A stretch of 47,941 bases of DNA from a virus (taxonomy: Duplodnaviria > Heunggongvirae > Uroviricota > Caudoviricetes). A program made the position numbers and the translations under genes. Each line of letters opens with the position of its first letter. The first letter of the stretch is position 1. The notes beneath the pieces were generated by a model, which saw only the letters and a list, made by a program, of their open reading frames with translations, did no database searches and had not been told where the DNA came from. Location: IMG/VR virus record IMGVR_UViG_2606217105_000017. One strand, 5' to 3'. Shown one piece after another: positions 3,096 to 45,547 of this stretch.

Positions 3096-6000
3096 TAAGC
3101 CAGATGCAGTGCTTCAAGACGACGAAGATCAAAGTCGTTTAATTCGTCGGTATAACTTTCGGTAATCGGTGCTGGCCAGTTGTTTGTCTCTAGGGCTTCG
3201 TTTATCTGGCGTAGCGTCCGGCGATATTCCTGTCGACCAAGTTCCAGGAGTTCCTGCGAGGCTTCCACGACTGCCACCCAGTGATAGCCAACATCTTTGT
3301 TGACGAAGATCCAGAAAAATTTGTCCAGGTTTGCCACATCACAATACATTGCGGCGCTGAGGTGATAATCACGCTCAATAATTTCACGGTGCAGGCGATC
3401 TTTAAGTCGTTCCTGCCGCACATAACCGAGGCTGACTGACTTCACGTCAGCGCAAATGCTTTCGTATGGCAGCCGGATTTCGATATCAGGACGGACCCTG
3501 ATTTCCAGCCCGGTTTCTTCATCAAACCCGAAATAGCTGATTTCAGATTTGCGATCCGGGTGGTTGAGTAGCCTTGCTGTATCGGTATTGTTTTGCAGTG
3601 CCGCGTGAATATTTTTTGCCTGTTCATACATATCCGCACTGATAAACGTTTTCCCGGCGTTTTCTTCTTGCTGTCGTTTTTGCCAGTCCTCCAGTGTCAC
3701 CAGTTCCGGGCGAATTTTCCGTGCGATTTCGGTTAATTGCTCTTTTGTGCCACTGATGTTGTAAGGCAACGATTTAGCACGTTCTTTTTTTGCCAGTTCT
3801 GGATCTACAGTTTCAATTTGCTCCAGAAGCTGCTCCCGTGTTCCACTGGTTTTCAGCAGAGGAGGGAGGCTTGCGTTGTATTCTTTAATACAGGCTTTCA
3901 TTGCTGATGCTGTGTGTTTTTCCCCCTCAGGAATACGCCGAAATTCCTCCGGAAGCGAACCGTAAAGGATGCCTGTTTCTTCGGTCCCAGCGCTTACCGA
4001 CAGTGGCTGTATAAGAGTGCTGTTGTAGCTTTCGATCCACTCTTTCATCTGCTCTGGTGTCATCAGTGATGGCAGACTGGCATTGTATTTTTTAATGATG
4101 GTGATCAGTTCGTTAGAAGTAGTAACCACATATTCAGGAACCGGTACCGGAATGGCATATTCATCAGCGAATTTATCCGTTTCCAGAACGTAGCTGTGAA
4201 TGATCCGCCCACGCAGCAATGCATCACTTTCCTCGTTCGGAATAGTCCCGGCAATGTGCCGCCCGTGGTAATACATCAGACTGATGCGGGCATCCTTCAG
4301 CATTGTGCTGCTTATTCCGTTGGCGGAGTGATAAACCTCGTTCGGGAGGTTTTCATAGCGGCCAGGCTCGAAATATGACGGCCACATGATTTCAGTTGCT
4401 ACATTAGCTGACGCTTCACCAGTTTCATCACTGCAATCGTGATGCGGATGGTTGCCAGCATTCTCCTTGTGTGGATGTTCAGCGCTTTCCATTTCCTCCG
4501 GATCATTTTCCTGAACTTCAACCTGATTCTCTTCATCGAATGTTTCCTGGTATGTTGCGTCGCCCATCACCGCACCACAATCAGGGCAGTTGCCGCCGTC
4601 GGTCTGACCGCAGGCGGCGCAGGCTTTTTCCGGCTCCTGTTGCGTTATTGGCTCGGGTTGTTTCGTTTCTGGCTCGTTTTGTTGCGCATTTCGGCTGTTT
4701 TGTTCCGCTTTCTGGTCGTTCTGTTCCGTTTCTTGCTGGTTCTGATTCACTGAATCGCGGGTTTCAATCCCCTTCACCCATTTCGGATCGTTCGGGTCGC
4801 TAATTCCGTCAACAAATTCACCACGTGATGCAGCAAGTAATTTATCGGCATCGACAGGATTTTTTGATGGAATGTTTTTCCGGGCTTCATGGAGTTCTGC
4901 CCGCAGTTCCTGATATTTCGCATCAACAGAATTTACCTGTGACTGAGCATCCAGCGGCTGCGTGTCCTGATGATGTTCAGTTGCATTCGGTTCCACTGTT
5001 TCAGCCGTTGCCTGTTCATCTGCCATTGCGCCAGATGGTTGTGGCTTTTCTTCATCGTCCTGTTTTCCTTCTTCTGTCACACGCTGCGGCATCGGGGCAG
5101 AGGAGCGACCGCAGGCAATATCCACGATTTCCGGATCAGGGTTGGCATGATCAGTTTCAGTCAGTACTTTGTTCAGATATTCAGTGACGTGCGCGGGGAT
5201 GACCTCGATCCCAATTGGTGCTTCTTTCACGGACGCAACCACGGTGGCGCGGGAATAATCCAGCCCGCCAGGCATGGTGATGAATTTGTCGCGGAAAACA
5301 GAAAAGGGCGGTTTATTTTCAGCGATAATTTCCTCAATGCGTTTAGCGTGTGCCGGATGAAGGTTATAGATGTCCACGTCCATTGAACGGGCCAGTACGC
5401 CAGTGGCTACATCGCGTGCCAGTGACGTCAGATCGTGGACGAAACCTTCGCCGCGATCGGTGAGGTTCCCGCCGCCAGCATTAGCACCGGAAGCCGTGCG
5501 AGTGATGCGTGAAACACGATTCCCTTTCCTCCATTCTTTTGTCAGAAGACCACGATCAATGTGTTCGGTATCCAGCCAGGCTGAAATGAAATTCTTAAAT
5601 TCATAGGGCTGATGTTTTTTCGTGATAGAGAAAACTGCCTTAATTGCATCAGTCAGGCGGAGCAGGGCGGCATTATCCAGAGTTGTCGGTTCTGCCATGC
5701 CGCGTATGGCCAACAGCAGATTCTGGACATAGCTGTTTTCCTGGCCCATCTCAAGAGCAGTAATGTGTTCGCGTTGTTCACGGGTGGCATGATGCAGGTA
5801 TTTCCGATCCCCGGCCGCATACGTAAAAATGTGCAGAAGACGCTGTGTGAACCGCAAAGTGGCTACAGAAACTTCGCAATCCTGGCAATCCCCGTGGGCG
5901 TCTGCCTGCGCGTTTTCTTCCTGGCCTCCCGCCAGTTCTTTGGTTTCCTGGGTATTCTCCTGATGGTGAACGTCGTCTGGTGCTGCACCCGGTTTTAGTT

Positions 6001-13454: not shown

Positions 13455-14027
13455 ATGAGAGACATTGATGTAAGAAAGGCTGTGCATGCCAAGATTCTGA
13501 GAGATCATCATAAAGATCCTGACACCCTAATCATTGATGAGTTTACGATGAATCTAGGGGCTAGCAGAGCTGATATAGCAGTGATCAATGGGCTTATACA
13601 TGGTTATGAGTTGAAGAGCAAGAGTGATAACTTGCTCAGATTACCAGCGCAGGTGCAACATTACTCATCAGTGATGGATAAAGTAACGTTGGTTGTCTCT
13701 GATTGCCATCTTTATGATGCTTTAAGCATAGTTCCATCATGGTGGGGGATAAAGCAAGTTACGCAAGGTGCACGGCAAGGTATCCATTTAAAAACAATTC
13801 GAACTAGCAAGTTGAATCCACAAGTGGACAAACTTTCCTTAACAATGCTTCTTTGGAAAGATGAATTGCTTTCCCTATTAAGTGATGTAGGGGAGCTACA
13901 GAATTTGAAAAATAAACCTAAACGCGTCTTATGGTCAAAACTCGCCAATAGTATGGATGTTGGCGAGCTTCGTGAAGCTGTTCGAGTTAAACTTAAAGCC
14001 CGTAAAGAGTGGCGAGTTGCTCAATAA
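13455..14027 (+). CDS. PD-(D/E)xK-type putative nuclease, sce7726-family-like (190 aa)
   Basis: Motif ..DTLIIDEF..RADIAVINGLIHGYELKSKSD.. gives a D...E-x-K core; AT-rich codon usage unlike flanking phage genes. Confidence 0.55.
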   Translation: MRDIDVRKAVHAKILRDHHKDPDTLIIDEFTMNLGASRADIAVINGLIHGYELKSKSDNLLRLPAQVQHYSSVMDKVTLVVSDCHLYDALSIVPSWWGIKQVTQGARQGIHLKTIRTSKLNPQVDKLSLTMLLWKDELLSLLSDVGELQNLKNKPKRVLWSKLANSMDVGELREAVRVKLKARKEWRVAQ

Positions 14028-15090
14028 CCTTAGTTATGTGATGGTTTTGCCCAATCCTACGCCATACCTCTGGGCTACCAAATTTATAGTTACCAGAGGG
14101 ATTGGCTTTGTAGGCTTGATACTCGTTTGCATAATATTCTATGTCTCTATCTCCCGCACAGAATGTAGGCCCTGAATATTCTCGATGAGCAAGAATATCC
14201 TCACTATGTTTACCATATTGTTCATAACCAAAGCGATTAGCTACTCTTCCTCGAAATACCCAAAAGTCATTATCTCCAGAGTATCTGACGCTGGCAGATA
14301 CGCTAGGGAATCGCGTCGAAAGCCTATTAAAGTCGGGGTGCTGTACTCCATAATCACTATAAATCACATTTCTGGCAAGTTCTTTTCTATTCATTAAACT
14401 CTGCCATAAAATCCACTCGATTCGAGGTTGAGAATATAGACCAACAGAAATATCACTGAGATCTGTAGGAAATGAACCCCCAGAAATAATCACTTTCCTG
14501 TATTCATTGAGGTGCGCCAGATTGTTTATCAATCCCATTGCCAAAGTATATAGTTCGCCGGAATTAAGTTTATCCTCGGTTAACTCATCTCTTAAGTCAA
14601 TAATTATATCAATATTTGATAAAGGAATTCCCAGATGATTAATGTAATGCGTTATTAATTGTGGGTTAACCAGATCTAACGTAGTTAATCTCAAGCATAT
14701 TTCATTCTGCATTAATTCTTCAATCGCTCTTTTATAGTTAGATGGGCGAGTTGGTGAACTGACAGGAATAACTCTTATTCCCATATCTCTAACTTGATTA
14801 ACCGCATTCATTATAGGGTAATGATCTTCAGGAGAAATAAAATGCTCTTCAATTAATAATCCATCAATATAAACACCTTGCATATCTGAGCAAGATTTTG
14901 AGACTTTCTTTCCGAACTCTATAAGAGTCTCGTTATAACTCTTTAAGGCAATACCTGAATCAGGGTCAATTGGCACTGGTTCAATTTCGAGTAATGGCAA
15001 AATTTTTGATTTCTTTTCAATGGATAGCTGCGATAAAGCTGATAACTCAGAACGTTTCGCTTTCAGAATAGGAATATATGAAATTGTCAT
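13993..15090 (-). CDS. Beta-protein / sce7725-family-like protein (365 aa), convergent partner of the 13455-14027 gene
   Basis: Long AT-rich ORF; recalled resemblance to the Beta_protein family (P4 beta type); 3' end overlaps the partner by 35 nt. Confidence 0.5.
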   Translation of the reverse strand: MTISYIPILKAKRSELSALSQLSIEKKSKILPLLEIEPVPIDPDSGIALKSYNETLIEFGKKVSKSCSDMQGVYIDGLLIEEHFISPEDHYPIMNAVNQVRDMGIRVIPVSSPTRPSNYKRAIEELMQNEICLRLTTLDLVNPQLITHYINHLGIPLSNIDIIIDLRDELTEDKLNSGELYTLAMGLINNLAHLNEYRKVIISGGSFPTDLSDISVGLYSQPRIEWILWQSLMNRKELARNVIYSDYGVQHPDFNRLSTRFPSVSASVRYSGDNDFWVFRGRVANRFGYEQYGKHSEDILAHREYSGPTFCAGDRDIEYYANEYQAYKANPSGNYKFGSPEVWRRIGQNHHITKVIEQLATLYGL

Positions 15091-16961: not shown

Positions 16962-17251
16962 TGGTGGATTTACGTAAAGCGGCGCGGGGGCAGATGTGCA
17001 CCGTCAGAATTCCTGGCTACTGCAATCACAATCCCGAAACTTCTGTGCTGGCGCATTACAGGCTGGCGGGGACGTGCGGAACAGCGATAAAGCCACACGA
17101 TATGCAGGCAGCGATTGCCTGTAGCTCGTGCCACGATTTAATCGACGGGCGGGTAAAAACCAGCGATTACACCAAAGAAGAATTACGCCTGATGCATGCA
17201 GAAGGTGTTTTTCGCACACAAGAAATCTGGAGAAAGGAGGGATATTTATGA
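16961..17251 (+). CDS. YbcO-like (DUF1364) Cys/His-rich putative nuclease (96 aa)
   Basis: Translation MVDLRKAARGQMCTVRIPGYCNHNPETSVLAH..CSSCHDLID.. resembles DLP12 YbcO. Confidence 0.65.
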   Translation: MVDLRKAARGQMCTVRIPGYCNHNPETSVLAHYRLAGTCGTAIKPHDMQAAIACSSCHDLIDGRVKTSDYTKEELRLMHAEGVFRTQEIWRKEGYL

Positions 17252-17790
17252 TTTACCCAACGAATACAGGAAAAAGCGGAGAACACCTTCGTCTCACCAC
17301 GCTGGAAAGTGTCTGGATTCAGGGAAAACTGCGCATGTGGGGGCGCTGGTCGTATATTGGCGGCGGTAAGACGGGGAATATGTTCAACCAGTTGTTGGCC
17401 TCTAAAAAGCTGACAAAAACGGCAATTAACGAGGCGCTCCGGAGGATGAAAAAAGCAGGTCTGAACAAGTCTGAACTTGAGGCTTTTTTGCGGGATATGA
17501 TTAACGGTAAGCAAAAGAGCTGGCTGGCGCATTGTACTGATGCAGAGGCGTTATGTATTGATCGGGTGATTAGTGAAGTGCTGGCAGAACACCCAGGATT
17601 GATTTTTATCCTCCGGCAACGATATGAAGGGAGGGGGATGACTAAGCGAAAAATGGCTGAATTGCTAAATGATGCACACCCTGAGTGGTGTTTTAGCACA
17701 TGCGAAAAGCGAATTGCTAATTGGTTGGCTGTTGCTGAGTATGCGCTATACGTTCCCATGCGAGAATCATTCGCTCAAAAAATAGCTTGA
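17248..17790 (+). CDS. Late-gene antiterminator Q-like (180 aa)
   Basis: ATGA overlap with the YbcO-like gene; followed by promoter-proximal terminator and late genes; W-rich N-terminal segment reminiscent of QuuD-type Q proteins. Confidence 0.6.
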   Translation: MIYPTNTGKSGEHLRLTTLESVWIQGKLRMWGRWSYIGGGKTGNMFNQLLASKKLTKTAINEALRRMKKAGLNKSELEAFLRDMINGKQKSWLAHCTDAEALCIDRVISEVLAEHPGLIFILRQRYEGRGMTKRKMAELLNDAHPEWCFSTCEKRIANWLAVAEYALYVPMRESFAQKIA

Positions 17791-18144: not shown

Positions 18145-18220
<76 letters not shown>

Positions 18221-18223
18221 TAT

Positions 18224-18298
<75 letters not shown>

Positions 18299-25506: not shown

Positions 25507-26943
25507 ATGGCTGAGATCGAGATTTCTGTAAATCTCAGTTCTTCGCTGATGCGCATTCTTGAGGCTGAAGAAATTCAGCCGGGAACCGACATTGGCTATG
25601 AACTGTGTAAACTGCTGTGGCAGTACCACCCGCTGGGCGGGAAACTTGTCGAAAAACCCATACTGATGGCGATGTGTAAGCCGCGCCAGTACAACGTGGA
25701 GACAGACCCTGACGAGCGGGTTGTGCGGCGTTTTCAGGAGGTATGGGAACGTATGAAGGTTAACGAGAAGATTAAAAATCTTTTTTTTCTGTCTCGTTGC
25801 TACGGTGCTGCAGCGATCGGCGTGGGCACCGACAGTGTTTCATGTCGTGAACCGCTTCCGACGTTCGGACTGACAGAAGAGGATGTGTATATCAACGCGT
25901 GGGATCCGTTGAACGCTTCCGGTTCGATGGTGACTGACCAGAACCCAAACAGTCCGTTTTTCCAGGAAGCCAATAAAAAGCTGAAGATTGGCGGAAAAGA
26001 CTGGCATCCGTCACGCACACTAAAAATCTTCAACGGCACACCGATTTATCTGGAGTTTCAGAGTTCATCGTTCGGATTCACCGGGCGAAGCGTATTTCAG
26101 CGCGTTCTTTATTCCCTGAAATCCTATATCAATACGATGGAGGCGAATGATCTCGTCAGCCAGAAGGCGGGCGTACTGGTAGCTAAAGTTGTGCAGTATG
26201 GCTCGAAACTTGACGGGATCATGGCTGCCGCCACGGGACGAAAAAGGGAAAACGTCAAAGAGGCAAAAAATAAAGGTGTGCTTAGTATCGGGAAGGATGA
26301 GGATGTTACCTCGCTGAATCTACAAAACATCGATGGTGCGCTAAACGCTGCACGCGACAATATTATTTCCGATATTGCGTCAGGGAGTGACGTTCCGGCG
26401 ATCCTTATTAAAGAGGAAGCCTTTTCGAATGGTTTCGGTGAGGGGACCGAAGATTCGAAAGCCGTCAGCCAGTATATCGATGGTGTACGCCAGCAGATTG
26501 AACCTGTGATGGATTATTTCGAACGCCTGGTGCAGTACATCGCCTGGAACGAGGAATTTTATCAGTCGCTGAAAAATGATTACCCGGACATCATAACTGA
26601 CGACTATAAAACCACGTTTTACCAGTGGCGACGTGAATTTACCGCGACGTGGCAGGAGCTGGTGGAGGAGTCGCCGGACAAACGCCGGGAAAGCGACAGT
26701 AAAGTGATTCAACAGGCGATAGCACTTTTCTCTGCTGTGTCGCCACAGGTTGATCCTGAAAACCGCGCCGCCGTCACTGAATGGCTGGCAAGCCTTGTTA
26801 ATGCCACGCAAACCTATGGCGAAGCTCCACTCATCATTGATGTGGACGCGCTGGCGAATTATGAACCACCGAAGCAGGAGACGCCTGATGGCAATTTCCA
26901 TCCGGGCGGTGAGGAAGAAGAAACGGATCAGGACGCTGTATGA
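25507..26943 (+). CDS. Portal protein (478 aa)
   Basis: Size and position immediately after TerL; acidic C-terminus. Confidence 0.6.
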   Translation: MAEIEISVNLSSSLMRILEAEEIQPGTDIGYELCKLLWQYHPLGGKLVEKPILMAMCKPRQYNVETDPDERVVRRFQEVWERMKVNEKIKNLFFLSRCYGAAAIGVGTDSVSCREPLPTFGLTEEDVYINAWDPLNASGSMVTDQNPNSPFFQEANKKLKIGGKDWHPSRTLKIFNGTPIYLEFQSSSFGFTGRSVFQRVLYSLKSYINTMEANDLVSQKAGVLVAKVVQYGSKLDGIMAAATGRKRENVKEAKNKGVLSIGKDEDVTSLNLQNIDGALNAARDNIISDIASGSDVPAILIKEEAFSNGFGEGTEDSKAVSQYIDGVRQQIEPVMDYFERLVQYIAWNEEFYQSLKNDYPDIITDDYKTTFYQWRREFTATWQELVEESPDKRRESDSKVIQQAIALFSAVSPQVDPENRAAVTEWLASLVNATQTYGEAPLIIDVDALANYEPPKQETPDGNFHPGGEEEETDQDAV

Positions 26944-38231: not shown

Positions 38232-38494
38232 CAACGTTAATTCCTTTCAAACCTGACGGGCGAGGACCATTTCAGTTCACGGCCAGAATCGGAGAATATG
38301 AAACATTCGCCCGCGTTCCGTTTAATCTGTATGCAAATCGTTATTACCTGGAACTGAAAGACAGTTCAGGCGACGTGATTGTATACATGCCTTTAATCGC
38401 GTCACCTGACAGTTACGACATCAATCTGGCGCTGCCTTGCTCACCGGGGAAACTTGTTTTTCGCGAAAGTACGAATCAGTTTGAGGTTTCGTAA
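38228..38494 (+). CDS. Small tail protein (88 aa)
   Basis: Coupled ORF. Confidence 0.4.
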   Translation: MTTLIPFKPDGRGPFQFTARIGEYETFARVPFNLYANRYYLELKDSSGDVIVYMPLIASPDSYDINLALPCSPGKLVFRESTNQFEVS

Positions 38495-39501
38495 TGCGTT
38501 ATTACCGACTGGAAATTATTAATCCTAAAACAGGCAAGCCGCCAGTGGATAGCAATGGAAAACCCATTGGACCTTTTGATACCAATGAAACACCAGGATG
38601 TGGGTTGCATGTTGAATTTGACTTTGAAGTAACCGGCCTGGATGTAGTCTGTTCGGGTACGATGCTGACGATCTATGGATTACCAATTGACATGCTGAAG
38701 CAAAGCGTAAGTTTGCAGGGTTGTCTGGTACGTATGAAAGCAGGCTTTGTTCAGGGGTTACCACTGGCAAATAAGGATCAACAGGGGGAGGTAATCTATG
38801 GTGAAATTTATCTGGCCTATGCCAACTGGATCGGCACGAACCAGACTTTAAACCTGGTAATAAATCCAAGCATACGCAAAACCGATGACGGTAAACCTTT
38901 TTCAATTGAGGGGCAGGGGGAAGCAGGGGAAAGGGTGGGTGATGTTTTAGTCCGCGCTTTGCAAAAAGCATATCCCAATAAACTTATTGATTGCACAGTC
39001 AGCGACAACCTGGTTTTGCCAGAGCCGTGGACGGGCAAATATACGGAGATTGGTTCGCTGGCTATGGTCGTAAAAAACGCCTCTATTGCGATGATGCGTA
39101 ATGAAAGGTATAGCGGAATCGCCATCAGTATTCTTTCCGACAGAATACGAATCTACGATAACGCATCGGCAAAGTGGGGTGAGCCAAAAACAATTCATGC
39201 CCATGAACTGGTCGGGCAGCCGACATGGATAGCGCCGTTTACCGTCAGTTTCAAATGCCCTATGAGAGGCGATATCAGATGTGGTGATGTGATTAAACTG
39301 CCGGAGGGGCTATATTCTGGCGCTGCGTCGATTGTGATGGCTAATACAACGGCACCCAGCGTTATCGCAAAAAATTCGACCACGTTCACCGGGAAATTTC
39401 TTGTGAAATCAGTCAGACACATTGGTTCGTATCTGACAGCCGATGGCGATGCCTGGGTGACGGTATTTGAGGCATATGCTGAGAACTGGGCGAGGGTGTA
39501 A
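38494..39501 (+). CDS. Baseplate hub-like protein (335 aa)
   Basis: Coupled ORF in baseplate region. Confidence 0.4.
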   Translation: MRYYRLEIINPKTGKPPVDSNGKPIGPFDTNETPGCGLHVEFDFEVTGLDVVCSGTMLTIYGLPIDMLKQSVSLQGCLVRMKAGFVQGLPLANKDQQGEVIYGEIYLAYANWIGTNQTLNLVINPSIRKTDDGKPFSIEGQGEAGERVGDVLVRALQKAYPNKLIDCTVSDNLVLPEPWTGKYTEIGSLAMVVKNASIAMMRNERYSGIAISILSDRIRIYDNASAKWGEPKTIHAHELVGQPTWIAPFTVSFKCPMRGDIRCGDVIKLPEGLYSGAASIVMANTTAPSVIAKNSTTFTGKFLVKSVRHIGSYLTADGDAWVTVFEAYAENWARV

Positions 39502-40214
39502 TGTCAAACGCTCAAAAATTACCGTTTCTCCGAACACTGTCGGAGATGATGACCAGTTCTGGTAACCAGCAAGCCGAGCTTAAAGGCCGCGAATTGCCCT
39601 GCCATGTTGTTGATATCTGCGGGCAAATAGTGACAGTTCAGTTTGATATGCTGCCGGAGGGGATCAACTTCCCGCAGATAACAATCCCTGTCGCCACATT
39701 CCCGTATATCCGTTACCCGATACAGCCGGGCGATCGAGGAGTAACAATTGCCGCTGATGTATCACTGCGCGGTGTGTCCGGATTGGGAACCGGTATGGCA
39801 ACGCTTTCTTACTCGATGTCGCTCACTCCCCTGTTTTTCGTGCCACTGGCAAACAAGGAGTGGTCCGACGAAGATCCGCAAAAAATCGTTTTGTACGGTC
39901 CGGATGGCGCGATCCTCAAAACAGAGGACGGCAGTAGCTCGGTAATGGTGGCTCTGGAAGAAATCAGGCAAAAGTCGAAAGCTGTTTACCTCGAGGCCGA
40001 AGATATTTTCCTGAACGGGAAAATTCACCTCAACGGACCGATCGTCCAGGACAAAGCCCAGATGAAGGATACAACCGCTTCGCTGATTGGTCCTCTTAAT
40101 GTCGAGATGGATGCAGTTATCAACGGCGTGAGCGTCAGCGGCCACAGCCACGATGTGACTGGTGTTCAAAGCGGCGGCAGCACGATCACGTCGAAGCAAC
40201 CAAATCCGGGTTAA
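39501..40214 (+). CDS. Baseplate spike (gpV-like) protein (237 aa)
   Basis: C-terminal ..SVSGHSHDVTG.. His motif typical of spike tips; position. Confidence 0.45.
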   Translation: MSNAQKLPFLRTLSEMMTSSGNQQAELKGRELPCHVVDICGQIVTVQFDMLPEGINFPQITIPVATFPYIRYPIQPGDRGVTIAADVSLRGVSGLGTGMATLSYSMSLTPLFFVPLANKEWSDEDPQKIVLYGPDGAILKTEDGSSSVMVALEEIRQKSKAVYLEAEDIFLNGKIHLNGPIVQDKAQMKDTTASLIGPLNVEMDAVINGVSVSGHSHDVTGVQSGGSTITSKQPNPG

Positions 40215-40253
40215 TTCCGGTTCATTTCACTTTAAATTCTATCCATAAAGCGA

Positions 40254-40288
40254 AAGCCCCGAACTGTTGCAGCAGTCGGGGCTTTTTG
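40254..40288 (+). terminator. Rho-independent terminator after the spike gene
   Basis: 10-bp stem GCCCCGA..TCGGGGC followed by T5. Confidence 0.55.
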
Positions 40289-40358
40289 TTTCTGACCTTG
40301 AATAAGGCAAGGAGAAGTCGTGTTTGATTTTAGCAAACTGATTCGGGAGATTCGAGTT

Positions 40359-40457
40359 ATGGCTGAAAAATTATCCACCTGGAAGTTTTTGCTTATTTGG
40401 TTGGTCTTTCTGATTCTGGCGTCTGGTTATTTTGTTGGCCAGATCCGATGGTGGTGA
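40359..40457 (+). CDS. Small membrane peptide ORF (32 aa)
   Basis: Hand-translated MAEKLSTWKFLLIWLVFLILASGYFVGQIRWW; weak SD; may be non-coding. Confidence 0.2.
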   Translation: MAEKLSTWKFLLIWLVFLILASGYFVGQIRWW

Positions 40458-40464
40458 GGGCACG

Positions 40465-40812
40465 ATGAGAACATGGGGCCGCGTCACCGACGCGAACGGC
40501 AACAAAAAATGGGTTGCAGTAGAATCTGACGCCAACGGTGATTTCTCCTACGGCTGGCTGACGACGCTCATTCAAACGTTAAAGCTGGGATTGGGGGAGT
40601 CGCCGTTTTACGCGAATTACGGTATTCCTGCGCAGCAGTGCATCGTGCAGCAGATTTACCCGGACTACTATGTGAACATGGTTCAGCAACAGTTTGCCGG
40701 CTATTTTGCATCATTGGCAATTTCAAAGGTAGATGGAGCAGATAACCCCACCTATAACATCGATGTTGTGTTTTTTAATGGGACCAGTTACCGGACGCAG
40801 GTGCCGGTATGA
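40465..40812 (+). CDS. Baseplate gpW/gp25-like protein (115 aa from ATG; ORF track starts 40432 with TTG)
   Basis: Size and position between spike and baseplate J-like genes. Confidence 0.35.
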   Translation: MRTWGRVTDANGNKKWVAVESDANGDFSYGWLTTLIQTLKLGLGESPFYANYGIPAQQCIVQQIYPDYYVNMVQQQFAGYFASLAISKVDGADNPTYNIDVVFFNGTSYRTQVPV

Positions 40813-40962
40813 ATCACAGTTTTATGATAAAACTTTTACCTTGGTTTGGAGTGCTGTAGAGAGATATTTTAGGGGAGGCGAGTAATTTTCTAAGCTGGAG
40901 CATATTGACATATATTATTTCGGATTTGCAAAATACAGATTGTAACCATGGAGGAGACAAGC

Positions 40963-42123
40963 ATGGAAAATTTTGCAAATAAGTTAAAAATACACACAGA
41001 GCATGTTGCAAAAATGGGGGTGTTTTGTACAACTGAAGAAACGACAAAACAAGCACTCATTATGCCATTACTAGATATTCTTGGTTTTACTCCGTATGAT
41101 CCAAGAAAAGTCAAAGCTGAGTATAGTGCTGACTTCCCCGGGGTTAAGGCTAATGAACGGGTTGATTACGCTTTATTTTGTCATGATGTTCCTGTGATGT
41201 TCATTGAGGCGAAATCGTTTTCAGAACAAATTGATAATCACTGCCCACAGCTATCAAGATATTTTAATTCAACACCGGAAGTTACTATATCAGCCATTAC
41301 AAATGGTGTTGAATGGCGTTTTTTTACGGATTTGAAACAAAAAAACATAATGGATTCAACGCCGTTTTTAAAATTAAGAATGGATTCTCTAACTCACTCC
41401 GATATTACACAATTATTTCGTTTTCGTTATGATAAATTCAAACCAGAGGCTTTACGGACACTGGCTGAAGAAAGTGTTTATTTGAATTCATTTACTAAAA
41501 CAATCAGTTCTAGTCTTCGTGAAGTTGATCTGGAGTTTGTTCGATATGTTGCTAGTCGTTCAAATATTGAGAGGCAACTTAATCAGAGATTTCTTGAGTT
41601 CGTGACTCCATTAGTTAAACAGGCCGTTGAGCGCGCTGTTAGCGCAATGGTGGTTTCCGGGCTATCTACACAACCGGTAGAGCAAACTAAAGAAAATGAT
41701 GCAACGGATACACAAGTTAATAACGCCATTGTTGATGAAGAAAACCCCAACATAATAACCACAGCCAAAGAATTGGAGCTATTTGAAAGGGTAAAACAAA
41801 TCATACAAACAGAAGATAATATAGAATATAAAGATACTGAGTCATATTTCGGTGTACTATTGAATGGTAAAACTAATAGATGGCTGTTAAGATTTTATGA
41901 TAAAAAATCTTCATTTATAACTTTACCTATTTCGCTTAGTGAAGTTCAGTTGAATGAAATAAGACGAGCTCGACTTGATACGGATGGTAAAAGGATACAT
42001 ATAACTAATCCGGAAGATATACTTCGCATATCTGGTTTGATTCTGGATTCATACGAGTATGTTAAAAATGATGATAATTTCCGCCGAGGGTCCAGAGTGA
42101 GCAGTTTAGAAGAGGTTGAATAA
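40963..42123 (+). CDS. Moron: PD-(D/E)xK nuclease-domain protein (HsdR-N-like N-terminus), 386 aa from SD-supported ATG
   Basis: AT-rich gene with GGAGGAG SD; motif ..ERVDYALFCHDVPVMFIEAKS..QLSRYF..ITNGVEWRFF..; followed by a bidirectional terminator; interrupts baseplate gene order. Confidence 0.6.
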   Translation: MENFANKLKIHTEHVAKMGVFCTTEETTKQALIMPLLDILGFTPYDPRKVKAEYSADFPGVKANERVDYALFCHDVPVMFIEAKSFSEQIDNHCPQLSRYFNSTPEVTISAITNGVEWRFFTDLKQKNIMDSTPFLKLRMDSLTHSDITQLFRFRYDKFKPEALRTLAEESVYLNSFTKTISSSLREVDLEFVRYVASRSNIERQLNQRFLEFVTPLVKQAVERAVSAMVVSGLSTQPVEQTKENDATDTQVNNAIVDEENPNIITTAKELELFERVKQIIQTEDNIEYKDTESYFGVLLNGKTNRWLLRFYDKKSSFITLPISLSEVQLNEIRRARLDTDGKRIHITNPEDILRISGLILDSYEYVKNDDNFRRGSRVSSLEEVE

Positions 42124-42127
42124 GTAA

Positions 42128-42151
42128 AAAACCCGCGAAAGCGGGTTTTTT
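42128..42151. terminator. Bidirectional rho-independent terminator
   Basis: A6-ACCCGC-gaaa-GCGGGT-T6. Confidence 0.65.
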
Positions 42152-42163
42152 AATGGAGTAAAT

Positions 42164-43390
42164 ATGTCAGAAATACCAATTACTATGACCAGTGCGGGTG
42201 CGCAGCCTACGCCACCCAATGATTTGCTCGCGAATCTTATCACTAGAGTTGCTGAAAAAGTACCTGGATATACAGCCAACCTTCCGGCGGGGCTTATTAC
42301 AGACCTTGCCAGCACGGCTGTCGGGGCGCTGGCATTAATAGACCAGGCGCGGGTGGACCTTATTAACTCCGTAAGCCCATACGGCGCGAATATTCCGTTA
42401 CTGATGCAACTCGGAAACATATATGGAGCACAGAAGGGATTAAGTACAAATACGGCGGTATACGTGGTGTTTGAGGCGTTGCCGGGGTTTGGTATCCCTA
42501 AAGGATTTGTTGTCGGTGACGGCAACTACCAGTATGCGGTTTCCCGCGATACCGTGGTACCGGAAAACGGGCAGACTGAGCCAGTCTACTGTGTGGCCAC
42601 AACGTCAGGCTCATGGGCTGTACCGGAAGGGACCGTGACGCAGGTCATTACCTCAGTACCCAAAGACCAGCCTGTAAAATGCACCAACTTTACCGCAGGA
42701 ATGCCCGGTCAGGAGGCGCAAACGTGGGCATCTTACCGCGCCGAAGTCATGGAGTCCGGCATGTTTGGTGTGCAGGGAACACCGGATTGCTTTAAAGCTA
42801 TGCTCAAATCAGTAAGCGGTGTGCGAGAAAACCTGATTTCTTTCCGGCAGTCGTCGCTGGGGAAATGGGTTGCGGTTGTTGGTGGCGGTGATCCGTATGA
42901 TGTGGCTTATGCGATTTACAAATCTGTACCGGATATTTCGAAACTGACCAACGATGTAAGCAATCCATCCGGTGCGGCAGTGGAAAAACGCACGGTTTCA
43001 ATAACCGTTTCGCCGGACGTTTATCAGGTGCCTTTCGTTATCCCGTCATCACAAAACGTCATGGTGCTAATCACCTGGAACACGGTGTCTGATGATTATG
43101 TTGATCCGGCGGGTATTGCTATGGCTGTGCAGCAAAACGTTGCTGATTACATCAATTCAATTGAAGTCGGACACCCGATAAATCTTCTGCGTATCCAGGA
43201 TATTTTTACCAGTTCTGTCAGGTTGCTGGTTGATGCGACGTTGATCTCAACAATCAGTGTGAGCATTGGTATTAACGGTCATATTGTTCTTCCGGCGAAA
43301 GACACAAGCCTGGTTTATGGCGATACCTATTCCTATTTTTCAACGGTGGCATCACAGGTTCAGGTCAACAAGTATGCAATATCTGACTGA
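42164..43390 (+). CDS. Baseplate J-like protein (408 aa)
   Basis: Size and order J, I, fibre, Tfa; GGAG SD. Confidence 0.55.
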   Translation: MSEIPITMTSAGAQPTPPNDLLANLITRVAEKVPGYTANLPAGLITDLASTAVGALALIDQARVDLINSVSPYGANIPLLMQLGNIYGAQKGLSTNTAVYVVFEALPGFGIPKGFVVGDGNYQYAVSRDTVVPENGQTEPVYCVATTSGSWAVPEGTVTQVITSVPKDQPVKCTNFTAGMPGQEAQTWASYRAEVMESGMFGVQGTPDCFKAMLKSVSGVRENLISFRQSSLGKWVAVVGGGDPYDVAYAIYKSVPDISKLTNDVSNPSGAAVEKRTVSITVSPDVYQVPFVIPSSQNVMVLITWNTVSDDYVDPAGIAMAVQQNVADYINSIEVGHPINLLRIQDIFTSSVRLLVDATLISTISVSIGINGHIVLPAKDTSLVYGDTYSYFSTVASQVQVNKYAISD

Positions 43391-44000
43391 GAAAATTCTC
43401 CCTGCTTATCCATTTGCGCAGTACAGAGATGATCCGAATGTTGTTGCGTTCTTTGATGCATACAATGAAATTGCTCAGGAATACCTCGATTCACTCAACA
43501 ATCTGGCATTGCCATGCTGGACATCGGAATCAATAACCGGGCAATTACTGGACTGGATTGCACTCGGGATTTATGGCGTTGAAAGGCCTTTACTACAGGT
43601 TTCCGAGGAGGCTATTGCACGCGGCGCATACGATACCATTGAATACAATACGATCCCGTATGCAGCAATGCGGAATTATGTTCCGGGGCAGGCATCGTAT
43701 GTACCTGATGATTATTTCAAACGAATATTAACGTGGAATTTTTATAAGGCTGACGGTTCGCATTTCTGCATTGACTGGTTAAAGCGCCGTGTGGCGCGGT
43801 TCATTCATGGGAAAAACGGAATAGACCCGCCGTTGCAGCACACTTTTGATGTGAGCGTGACTGTATCGGACAGTGTTTTTTCTATTCAGATACCAGAATA
43901 TGGTGATGGTATAGGCTATTTTCTGAAAGATGCCATTGACCAGAAATATGTAAAACTCCCTTTTATTTATTCCTATGCAACAACGGTGATTCAAAAATGA
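43374..44000 (+). CDS. Tail protein I-like (208 aa)
   Basis: Overlaps J-like stop; position before the fibre gene. Confidence 0.5.
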   Translation: MQYLTEKILPAYPFAQYRDDPNVVAFFDAYNEIAQEYLDSLNNLALPCWTSESITGQLLDWIALGIYGVERPLLQVSEEAIARGAYDTIEYNTIPYAAMRNYVPGQASYVPDDYFKRILTWNFYKADGSHFCIDWLKRRVARFIHGKNGIDPPLQHTFDVSVTVSDSVFSIQIPEYGDGIGYFLKDAIDQKYVKLPFIYSYATTVIQK

Positions 44001-45547
44001 TTCTTGGATTCGGCAATAACGTTGTTTCAGCACTGGCTGGTGATATTACGACGATTCAGACTGATATTCCGGTGATGCCGGGCACGGGAGCTAAATTTGC
44101 AAAATTGCTTTCTGCCGATTTTGAAAATAAATCGAACGGGCAACGCGTCTATGCAAAAATTACGCTTACCGATAATAAAGAGTCAGCGTTTGAGATTTGT
44201 CACCTGGTATCGGTAAGCGGTGATGTGCTGAAAGTCATTCGTGGGCAGGAAGGAACAACCGCGAAAGGTTGGTCCCTTAATGACGTTGTGGCTAACTTTG
44301 CCACACGTGGATCGGAAAACTATTTCGTACAGATAGCGCAGCTTCAGAGCGGTCATTATATTGCAGGTGTCGCTGGCGGCACTGCAAATGCACTGACGCT
44401 GGAGCTTCCCGCGACGTTTTTTGTTAATGGAGGTACAGATTGGACGCTACGAACTCCTATTATCGTTTTCCCCGTTCAGAACAATACCAACGCCGCAACG
44501 CTTCAATTGACACTGGGCGGAAAGGTTCTTGGTACGTTTCCACTTTATAAGGGGAACAAGTCCGGGCTGGTAGCGAACGATATCATTAAAGGTATTCCCT
44601 TAATTTGCCTTCTTGATAGCGAGAAAAGCTATTTCAGCGTGATAAACCCCGGCAATATCTATTCAGATTTTGATCTGCGATATGTAAAAAAATCTGGTGA
44701 TTTGATGACCGGGGAGCTGAAAATCCGTGGTGTTAATGCACTGAGGATTTTCAACGACGCTTTTGGTCTGATTTTTCGTCGTTCGGAAGAGTGCCTGCAC
44801 CTTATTCCTACCAGTGAAGGTCAGGGCGAGAATGGCGATATTGGTCCACTTCGACCGTTCACTATTAATCTGCGGACGGGTGAAATATCCATGTCGCATA
44901 AAGTGTCTGTTGGCGGTGGTTCTCAGGTCAATGGTGCGCTGGGTATCGGCGTTCAGAACGCGCTGGGCGGAAACTCAATTGCTTTCGGGGATAACGATAC
45001 AGGTATAAAACAAAACGGCGACGGCATTCTGGATGTTTATGCGAATGGACAGCATGTATTTCGTTTCCAGAATGGTGTGGCGATAGCGTTAAAAAATATT
45101 CAGGCCGGAAATGCTAAAAAATTCACGTTATCCAGCGCCAACAACTCAACGAAAAACGCAACGTTTAATTTATGGGGCAATTCGTCCCGTCCTGTAGTTG
45201 CAGAGCTTGGTGATGATTCCGGCTGGCATTTTTACAGCCAGAGAAATACGGATAACAGTATAACGTTCGCTGTAAACGGACAGATGGTCCCGTCAAATTA
45301 TGGAAATTTCGATGCCCGTTACCAGACCAAATCAGGGGGCGTGCAGAATTTTCAGTACACCAGTGAGGTGTTTTACAACCCTGGTGGGAATGAGCGCAGC
45401 TGGACGTTTCGGGCACCTTCTGGTTGTGTTTTGTCAGGCATTAATGTTCAGGACACTGGCAGTAACTCTGCAGATAATATCGGTGGCGTGTATTACAAAC
45501 AGGCTCAGATTTATATCAATGGTGCATGGCGATCCGTATCAGGTTAA
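43997..45547 (+). CDS. Tail fibre protein (516 aa)
   Basis: Gly/Asn/Ser/Thr-rich beta-rich sequence followed by a Tfa gene. Confidence 0.55.
   Translation: MILGFGNNVVSALAGDITTIQTDIPVMPGTGAKFAKLLSADFENKSNGQRVYAKITLTDNKESAFEICHLVSVSGDVLKVIRGQEGTTAKGWSLNDVVANFATRGSENYFVQIAQLQSGHYIAGVAGGTANALTLELPATFFVNGGTDWTLRTPIIVFPVQNNTNAATLQLTLGGKVLGTFPLYKGNKSGLVANDIIKGIPLICLLDSEKSYFSVINPGNIYSDFDLRYVKKSGDLMTGELKIRGVNALRIFNDAFGLIFRRSEECLHLIPTSEGQGENGDIGPLRPFTINLRTGEISMSHKVSVGGGSQVNGALGIGVQNALGGNSIAFGDNDTGIKQNGDGILDVYANGQHVFRFQNGVAIALKNIQAGNAKKFTLSSANNSTKNATFNLWGNSSRPVVAELGDDSGWHFYSQRNTDNSITFAVNGQMVPSNYGNFDARYQTKSGGVQNFQYTSEVFYNPGGNERSWTFRAPSGCVLSGINVQDTGSNSADNIGGVYYKQAQIYINGAWRSVSG

Follow-up and report, generated by a model that had tools for sequence, protein, structure and literature searches.

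A mobile cargo gene between the baseplate genes of a Rac-type prophage encodes a stand-alone HsdR-N-type nuclease and is a candidate for lysogen protection

Introduction

DpnI, MspJI, PvuRts1I and Mrr are two-domain restriction enzymes that act independently of a methyltransferase. Defence genes can also be linked to prophage repressors: BstA, encoded downstream of the BTP1 repressor, is a repressor-linked prophage defence gene, and lambda rexAB is an abortive system. In phage T4, the double-wing fold of MotA is used to read glucosyl-hydroxymethylcytosine DNA. Here, we analyzed IMG/VR record IMGVR_UViG_2606217105_000017 (Caudoviricetes), a stretch of 47,941 nucleotides that we call the window, and discuss a gene for a stand-alone nuclease that lies between two of its baseplate genes. 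The window is a complete Rac-type prophage with ttcA integration, and its counterpart is found in Escherichia coli 214-4 (99.9% identity over 40400–42600), between ttcA/intR and ompN/uspF. As judged from sequence comparison, we are dealing with a moron, a cargo cassette of one gene that moves horizontally and occupies a recombination hot spot between two baseplate genes of a Rac-SA53-like prophage. Its product belongs to a catalogued but uncharacterized family, whose domain combination was not found in PADLOC-DB v2.0.0, and the location of most relatives directly after a repressor gene makes it a good candidate, among many such candidates, for a lysogen-protecting anti-phage nuclease.

Cargo cassette and exchange slot

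The region was compared with Escherichia phage Rac-SA53 and with vB_Apl-pPE4 by blastn, and the flanks of the gene were 96–97% identical to both. The cassette and the conserved genes on either side of it are as follows (PGAP, Prokaryotic Genome Annotation Pipeline; GC, guanine-plus-cytosine content).

40824..42155, no strand: variable cargo cassette, 1332 bp, GC 0.359, without counterpart in Rac-SA53 and vB_Apl-pPE4 (blastn)
40465..40812, plus strand: left flanking conserved gene, 115 aa, in W-like position; phrog_7986 (unknown function); conserved in Rac-SA53 and pPE4
42164..43390, plus strand: right flanking conserved gene, baseplate J / wedge subunit; phrog_6, E = 2e-37; named 'baseplate J/gp47 family' by PGAP

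In both phages, homology ends at 40823, which is 11 nt past the stop codon of the 115-aa gene, and restarts at 42156, 8 nt ahead of the baseplate J ATG. The original prediction, made from the sequence alone, had placed a moron between baseplate genes at 40814–42151. Its boundaries are very close to those from the comparison, and the moron itself is borne out by the near relatives and the E. coli prophages described below, which share the flanks and carry other cargo. The base composition of the cassette also differs from its surroundings (0.359 vs 0.47–0.49 for the flanking baseplate genes and 0.478 for the window).

At the same breakpoints, Rac-SA53 carries an antirepressor and two hypothetical genes and pPE4 an antirepressor and one hypothetical gene, in each case on the opposite strand. 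Among 5426 complete E. coli genomes surveyed, the nuclease gene occupies the slot in 25, and about 65 further E. coli prophages have the same flanks with other cargo; the frequency of the nuclease is thus 25 of the roughly 90 prophages with common flanks. The alternative cargo in E. coli consists of Ant or AntA/AntB cassettes of several sizes, accompanied by one or two minus-strand hypothetical genes, or of Ant together with an LprI-family ('lysozyme inhibitor') gene. The latter lies on the plus strand, as does the nuclease gene, and has its own terminator (A-tract, GC hairpin and T-tract) right before the J ribosome-binding site. Among the loci inspected, which were those listed out of 94 records, none had an empty slot, and alternative cargo was always present. 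Because alternative cargo occurs at the same breakpoints, the W-like/J slot is a generic hot spot, that is, a general exchange point and not a private insertion site. One example of the slot with other cargo is the locus of E. coli 401651 (5232–5978).

A 12-nt sequence, GTTTTTTAATGG, is present in exactly two copies in the window (40770–40781 and 42145–42156; 0.01 expected). The left copy falls inside the W-like gene, at its 3′ end and 43 bp ahead of the left breakpoint, and the right copy ends exactly at the right breakpoint. This repeat may provide microhomology for cassette exchange. A target-site duplication was also considered and was rejected, because the left copy is 43 bp inside conserved sequence.

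The gene and its expression signals

The following features define the gene and its putative transcription unit (ORF, open reading frame).

40963..42123, plus strand: stand-alone nuclease ORF, 386 aa, stop included; full-length PHROG 4225 match; same start in PGAP
40950..40956, plus strand: Shine-Dalgarno sequence GGAGGAG, 6 nt before the ATG, by direct sequence reading
40905..40934, plus strand: sigma-70-like promoter candidate, TTGACA (40905–40910), 18-nt spacer, CAAAAT (40929–40934); 10 of 12 consensus matches, in silico
42125..42152, no strand: symmetric intrinsic terminator with A-tract, CCCGC-GAAA-GCGGG hairpin and T-tract; ΔG −17.4 kcal/mol, z −4.5

An alternative in-frame ATG at 40948 would give a protein of 391 aa. 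The start at 40963 is preferred because GGAGGAG lies 6 nt upstream of it, PGAP uses it in E. coli 214-4, and homologs align from that residue. The strong Shine-Dalgarno sequence and the AT-rich gene of the original prediction were both recovered, the latter with a GC of 0.357 for the ORF and of 0.26 at third codon positions (GC3).

In a consensus scan, TTGACA-18-CAAAAT was the top-scoring promoter site within 40200–42600; promoter-like sites were only mildly enriched, with 10 found vs 5.8 ± 2.9 expected in such AT-rich DNA. Of the two hexamers proposed earlier, TTGACA stands, whereas TATATT (40911–40916) abuts the −35 element and is unusable as a −10 element. Downstream of the gene, TAAAAAACCCGC-GAAA-GCGGGTTTTTTA forms a perfect 12-nt inverted repeat that begins one base after the stop codon, and a T6 run follows the hairpin. 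None of 200 shuffled sequences folded as well, so that the predicted A6-hairpin-T6 terminator of the gene's own is upheld in silico. A consensus terminator scan did not find the 42125–42152 hairpin, probably because the A/T arms lengthen its stem. From its sequence, the terminator appears usable in both directions.

Another perfect inverted repeat, of 11 nt (ATTTGCAAAAT and ATTTTGCAAAT, 40924–40934 and 40970–40980), encloses the Shine-Dalgarno sequence and the ATG in a 35-nt loop. Its arms cover the −10 candidate and codons 3–6, the right arm being coding, and when late transcription reads through, the start site of the transcript could become enclosed in a hairpin. An inverted pair of ATTTGCAAAA at the promoter and start codon was rejected as an operator, given that its right arm consists of the codons N-F-A-N, and the count of this motif was not significant (3 vs 0.76 expected; three or more in 9% of shuffles). 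Rfam returned only sub-threshold, terminator-driven matches in 39800–42400.

Nuclease domain

The N-terminal part of the protein is a PD-(D/E)xK domain.

40963..41427, plus strand: HsdR-N / RecB-like PD-(D/E)xK domain, residues 1–155, by Pfam, conservation, AlphaFold2 (AF2) and Foldseek
41164–41166, 41206–41208 and 41212–41214, plus strand: catalytic codons of D68, E82 and K84, respectively; QxxxY motif at Q96–Y100

Pfam matches were HSDR_N (E = 5e-14, residues 63–128) and HSDR_N_2 (E = 2e-9, residues 25–126), with no other match. Conservation was assessed in an alignment of 78 sequences of the family, taken from Enterobacterales and Clostridia and with identities as low as 31%, in which D68, E82, K84, R99 and Y100 were invariant and Q96 was nearly so. 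The near-invariant Q96 and the invariant Y100 correspond to the QxxxY motif of HsdR/RecB-type nucleases. The motif read from the sequence beforehand, D..FIEAK..Q..Y..NG..W.F, proved exact (D68, F80-I-E82-A-K84, Q96, Y100, N114-G115 and W118).

AF2 run on the 78-member alignment gave a mean predicted local distance difference test score (pLDDT) of 79. Within the nuclease domain pLDDT was mostly above 90, with 72–77 at residues 51–70. In a Foldseek search of the PDB, the Vibrio vulnificus HsdR fragment 3h1t ranked first (probability 0.99). Next came BpuSI, EcoR124I HsdR and further folds of the restriction-endonuclease type, and all E-values were modest (at least 0.012). When the PDB was searched by sequence and by profile, using the protein itself and profiles of the family and of its C-terminal part as queries, the only matches were at chance level (haemagglutinin, chemoreceptors and an antibody chain). 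The nuclease fold is supported by Pfam and Foldseek together, and the HsdR-N-type PD-(D/E)xK core proposed in the original prediction agrees with the profile (5e-14), the predicted structure (3h1t) and the invariant residues. Relative to four homologs with 68–85% amino-acid identity, the non-synonymous divergence (dN) was 0.09–0.25 and synonymous sites (dS) were saturated, indicating strong purifying selection on the nuclease gene.

C-terminal module

The remainder of the protein had been described as a single uncharacterized domain of 250 aa. This did not hold, and three parts were distinguished instead (pI, isoelectric point).

41428..41667, plus strand: helical region, residues 156–235; AF2 helices 161–184, 190–199 and 208–234; pLDDT 46–79; 84% mean identity in Enterobacterales
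41668..41742, plus strand: acidic disordered linker, residues 236–260; pLDDT 30–60; 12–16% identity; pI 4.1
41743..42072, plus strand: compact alpha/beta C-terminal domain of 110 aa, residues 261–370, with a YdhG/YjbR/MotA-CTD-like (CTD, C-terminal domain) 'double-wing' fold, by AF2 and structure matches

The helical region is possibly a linker or an oligomerization element, as far as the model suggests. When modeled alone, the C-terminal domain reached a pLDDT of 89 and a predicted template modeling score (pTM) of 0.79, with the topology alpha-beta4-alpha-beta-alpha. Its conserved positions form the motifs TT..E, YKDT..YF and W..R..D. The structural matches were as follows, with their scores.

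9t2w: YdhG-like / DUF1801, 8.7 (99 residues, 2.8 Å)
2a1v: DR2400, DUF419, 6.6
2fki: E. coli YjbR, 6.2
5jlt: T4 MotA C-terminal DNA-binding domain, 6.0
6k4y_M: T4 MotA (full length, sigma appropriation complex), 5.8
2kfp: PSPTO_3016, 5.6

YjbR-family proteins have a MotA-like 'double-wing' DNA-binding fold, and in defence contexts they occur as fusions with GIY-YIG and PLD nucleases (PMC7641849). A double-wing-like fold was found by predicted structure for this part of the protein, with no profile match: a Pfam scan of 40 homologous C-terminal domains gave nothing consistent. Foldseek against BFVD gave only weak matches to Bacillus phage G gp643, MotA and Alc (E ≥ 0.01).

The C-terminal domain accumulates non-synonymous change at two to three times the level of the nuclease and helical parts, and its identity within Enterobacterales is 63%, vs 80–84% for those parts. 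Such faster divergence fits the pattern of a specificity module. Considering the modeled fold, the domain is probably a target-recognition or sensor module.

Family and neighborhoods of relatives

The protein matches PHROG 4225 ('endonuclease') over its full length (E = 1e-148). Word-seeded searches gave 1356 and 2660 matches, that is, at least 1356 homologs. A full scan yielded 289 clusters (50% identity) at E ≤ 1e-30 in Proteobacteria, Firmicutes and Bacteroidetes, and 473 viral contigs of IMG/VR contain a relative. Architecture and length (~350–400 aa) are uniform across the family, and a search for the C-terminal domain fused to other effectors found same-family fragments only. In one representative (P0285, 509 aa), an N-terminal TerD domain precedes the nuclease (Pfam TerD, E = 2e-10); this fusion could be genuine or a gene-calling artifact.

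Genomic context was classified for the best 80 of the IMG/VR loci.

22 loci: W-like/J slot, near-identical to the window
47 loci: cI-type repressor 12–176 nt upstream, same strand
2 loci: adjoining a Q antiterminator
6 loci: other
3 loci: without upstream DNA

Repressor linkage was therefore found in 47 of the 55 best-80 loci that lie outside the W-like/J slot and have upstream DNA, and at least three kinds of repressor are represented. In Citrobacter prophages, the gene follows a cI-type repressor (HTH_3 and Peptidase_S24) by 22 nt on the same strand, opposite a cro/YdaS-YdaT pair. The gap to the repressor is 8 nt in Morganella prophages, and replication modules differ among these loci. In Klebsiella phage KpF5, the gene stands behind a 'Rac prophage repressor', and in Clostridium phage CWou-2020a it is downstream of helix-turn-helix regulators. 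In Streptococcus pneumoniae phage IPP25, the repressor gene is followed by a hypothetical gene, the nuclease-family gene and the integrase gene, in that order, and Lacticaseibacillus phage P7.1 has a similar layout with unannotated genes.

Other positions were also found. In three E. coli genomes, a homolog (78% nucleotide and 85% amino-acid identity) is located on the opposite strand in the interval from Q to the stx2/late region; in Porphyromonas phages the gene adjoins HicAB among structural genes; and one Clostridium copy, on the chromosome, has three Schlafen-type helicases, a MazG-like gene and nSTAND3 as its immediate neighbors. The family is accordingly found after cI, between Q and late genes, and in the tail-gene hot spot, near toxin–antitoxin or defence genes. 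Among the contexts compared, only the ORF is conserved, and the upstream and downstream sequences differ. No conserved neighbor and no adjacent methyltransferase were found in the E. coli, Citrobacter, Morganella, Klebsiella, Clostridium, Streptococcus, Lacticaseibacillus and Porphyromonas contexts examined; in one Stx prophage, a methyltransferase gene is two genes away and is absent from the sister locus. The homologs are not conserved structural components of the baseplate.

Proposed function and its alternatives

On balance, though without great confidence, we favor the reading that the gene encodes a lysogen-protecting defence or exclusion nuclease acting on the DNA of superinfecting phages. 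The location of most relatives directly behind a repressor strengthens the idea of lysogenic conversion or superinfection exclusion, which we still infer, and a gene placed after cI should be expressed in the lysogen. Such expression, DNA as the substrate, an anti-phage effect and the basis of self/non-self discrimination are likewise what we infer.

In a lysogen, the gene would be transcribed from its own sigma-70-type promoter, and transcription would be halted at its own terminator. During lytic growth, a Q-type antiterminator would allow late transcription to pass this terminator into the J and fiber genes. Q-modified polymerase of lambdoid phages reads through intrinsic terminators, so a strong terminator inside the late operon need not block the expression of J and the fiber gene; by analogy, Q-driven read-through would presumably operate in the phage of the window. 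The nuclease would be ATP-independent and would consist of a catalytic domain, a helical region and a C-terminal module after a flexible linker. Without a methyltransferase partner, the protein would attack incoming foreign (phage) DNA and thereby shield the lysogen from superinfection.

Self DNA might be spared in either of two ways within such a defence function. The C-terminal domain could recognize a feature absent from host DNA, a modification- or feature-reading mechanism like that of Type IV or Type IIM enzymes, which we propose only tentatively. Alternatively, it could hold the nuclease off until an infection cue arrives, and a sensor-released abortive mechanism of this kind seems to us just as doubtful. 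More broadly, it is a speculative thought, based on the modeled fold, that temperate phages widely carry this family as an immune nuclease encoded by one gene, which is as a rule transcribed together with the repressor, and that the double-wing domain reads modified or otherwise non-self DNA and licenses HsdR-type cleavage. Such a protein would represent a new class of restriction enzyme that needs no methyltransferase and has a new recognition module.

Several observations weigh against the defence reading. A PADLOC-DB v2.0.0 scan of the protein returned no family at E ≤ 1. We found no experiment on any family member in the literature, where an earlier description may nevertheless exist, and the sole mention there is correlative: a gene with the same annotation (~347 aa) is present in a phage-resistant Campylobacter jejuni strain and not in a phage-sensitive strain. 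The promoter is a consensus match in AT-rich DNA, where such sites are common. Near-identical versions of a single Klebsiella-type prophage make up many of the 47 loci with repressor linkage, so that this number overstates independent events. In addition, a Gilliamella copy lies between pdxST and a GFA gene and a Clostridium perfringens copy among housekeeping genes, each at a fixed position without prophage or defence neighbors, and these chromosomal copies indicate that the family is not confined to phages or to defence. Finally, with a pI of 5.5 the C-terminal domain is mildly acidic, and its fold class also holds protein binders (secretion chaperones, immunity proteins and PsiB), for which reasons DNA binding by this domain is not secure.

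In the DefensePredictor paper and a domain-centric discovery paper, the family is without mention in the text or the supplements consulted. Two candidate counterparts were considered and rejected: the exclusion gene olg1 of Pseudomonas phage Fc02 is a DEDDh exonuclease, and gp28 of Mycobacteriophage Panchino is a large fused restriction–modification–specificity protein.

The alternative that survives best is an abortive-infection or toxin-like effector, in which the C-terminal domain is a protein sensor or auto-inhibitor and a phage protein releases a non-specific nuclease that destroys host and phage DNA together. The fold class of this domain has many protein binders (type III secretion system chaperones, PsiB, immunity proteins and AcrIIA11), the domain is acidic and diverges faster than the nuclease, and lambda rexAB occupies the corresponding place behind cI. 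However, the top structural matches are the YdhG/YjbR/MotA-CTD group, in which DNA binding is documented or predicted, and no antitoxin-like partner gene was present at the contexts examined. We consider this alternative unlikely; it is in any case a mechanistic variant of the lysogen-protecting nuclease, and nothing experimental separates the two.

A nuclease of DNA metabolism, serving the phage or the cell in recombination or repair, degradation of host DNA during lytic growth or processing of replication intermediates, and not in defence, appears improbable. Gilliamella and C. perfringens do have conserved single-copy chromosomal homologs with housekeeping genes around them, some of the C. 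perfringens homologs are labeled 'DNA polymerase III subunit epsilon' (a source label only), and the window gene points in the same direction as the late operon, so that it would be transcribed late too. Nevertheless, the gene is dispensable for this phage type, being absent from Rac-SA53, pPE4 and the ~65 E. coli prophages; its AT-rich composition marks it as foreign; and the stereotyped linkage of the family is to a lysogen-expressed repressor, not to replication or recombination genes, with relatives that adjoin toxin–antitoxin and defence genes.

Least probable of the three is a free-standing, selfish homing endonuclease that cuts a specific site in cassette-free relatives and spreads by recombinational repair into the W-like/J region without benefit to the lysogen: a catalytic domain, a linker and a small putative DNA-binding domain resemble the modular layout of free-standing homing enzymes of the I-TevI type, the insertion between conserved structural genes is precise, and the ORF occurs at several unrelated positions in different phages with only the ORF and not the flanks conserved, whereas no empty target allele occurred among the loci inspected (the slot always has alternative cargo), the location of most relatives is stereotyped, with co-transcription with a repressor, stable chromosomal copies exist, purifying selection across the family has been strong over a long divergence, and HsdR-N-type domains are, to our knowledge, not a recognized class of homing endonuclease.

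If the lysogen-protecting function is true, a compact one-gene, ATP-independent nuclease joins the prophage-encoded defences, the gene found behind the repressor in hundreds of prophages is accounted for, and the systematic misannotation as 'type I restriction endonuclease' is corrected. A nuclease steered by a double-wing domain would then also be of interest for the development of restriction enzymes or modified-DNA readers. If the defence inference fails, the protein is one more uncharacterized phage nuclease. The W-like/J junction of Rac-SA53-like prophages is a cargo hot spot that can be mined for accessory genes.

Other features of the prophage

Further genes of the window are listed here.

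38494–39501: baseplate hub
43997–45547: tail fiber
17248–17790: Q-like antiterminator; phrog_753, E = 6e-79
13455–14027, plus strand: ORF of an early accessory island; PADLOC model 'cll' (E = 2e-28)
13993–15090, minus strand: ORF of the same island; PADLOC models 'PD-Lambda-2_C' / 'beta' (E = 3e-42)

The gene order had been given as W-like, J, I and fiber; the J and fiber labels hold, and 'W-like' describes position alone, as the gene matches only phrog_7986. The stretch of ~193 bp at 40265–40457, which separates a baseplate gene of 237 aa from the W-like gene, is 83–85% identical to unannotated DNA of ~39 Stx1/Stx2-converting phages and of H-19B, which otherwise have no similarity to the baseplate region. 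The equivalent stretch of Rac-SA53 overlaps a 45-aa ORF, 'rac58'. The deposited host of vB_Apl-pPE4 (PP818812.1) is Actinobacillus pleuropneumoniae, and this phage is 96.7% identical to the E. coli Rac-type prophage of the window across the baseplate region; the assignment of Actinobacillus as host looks doubtful.

The two early ORFs above are convergent and overlapping and form a second AT-rich accessory island (13455–15090, GC 0.34–0.41). PGAP names the pair 'sce7726 family' and 'beta family', and by its sequence the island looks like a gop-beta-cll / PD-Lambda-2-like defence module. The early region (1–20400) includes hokD, kilR, ralR and recE/recT according to the annotation of the matching genome. 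Genes for tRNA-Thr(TGT) and tRNA-Gly(TCC) lie at 18145–18298, directly downstream of the Q-like gene, and in the portal region (~25507–26943) PGAP labels a protein 'anti-CBASS protein Acb1 family'.

Comparison with known systems

The window protein is of the same family as PHROG 4225, and the names attached to its homologs are annotation labels only. With HsdR (EcoR124I; V. vulnificus 3h1t) it shares a homologous N-terminal PD-(D/E)xK domain with D...ExK and QxxxY, but it lacks the superfamily 2 helicase/translocase (ResIII/DEAD and Helicase_C) and has the helical region and the 110-aa domain instead. It is also much shorter, with 386 aa vs ~1000 aa in HsdR and a different C-terminus, and has no HsdM/HsdS partner, its neighbors being baseplate genes and, in relatives, a repressor, Q, HicAB or housekeeping genes. 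The NCBIfam HsdR equivalog scored 19 bits, below its cut-off of 729. As two of the three defining HsdR features (the motor and hsdM/hsdS) are lacking, the protein is not a member of HsdR; PGAP's label 'type I restriction endonuclease' is a misnomer for a protein that lacks a motor and has no methyltransferase gene next to its own.

The protein resembles DpnI, MspJI, PvuRts1I and Mrr (Type IIM / Type IV) in combining a solitary PD-(D/E)xK domain with a small putative recognition domain and no methyltransferase, but no sequence or profile relation to their domains (Mrr_cat, SRA-like and winged helix) was found, and the putative recognition fold is YdhG/YjbR/MotA-CTD-like. From the proteins of that fold, namely T4 MotA-CTD, MmcQ/YjbR (DUF419) and YdhG-like (DUF1801), the domain differs in its sequence, with 8–13% identity and no Pfam or PDB profile match, and in being mildly acidic. 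Most nuclease relatives share with lambda rexAB and BstA their position and orientation immediately downstream of a cI-type repressor. The proteins are nevertheless unrelated, and the gene of the window is located not at the repressor but in a baseplate hot spot, with a promoter-like site and a terminator.

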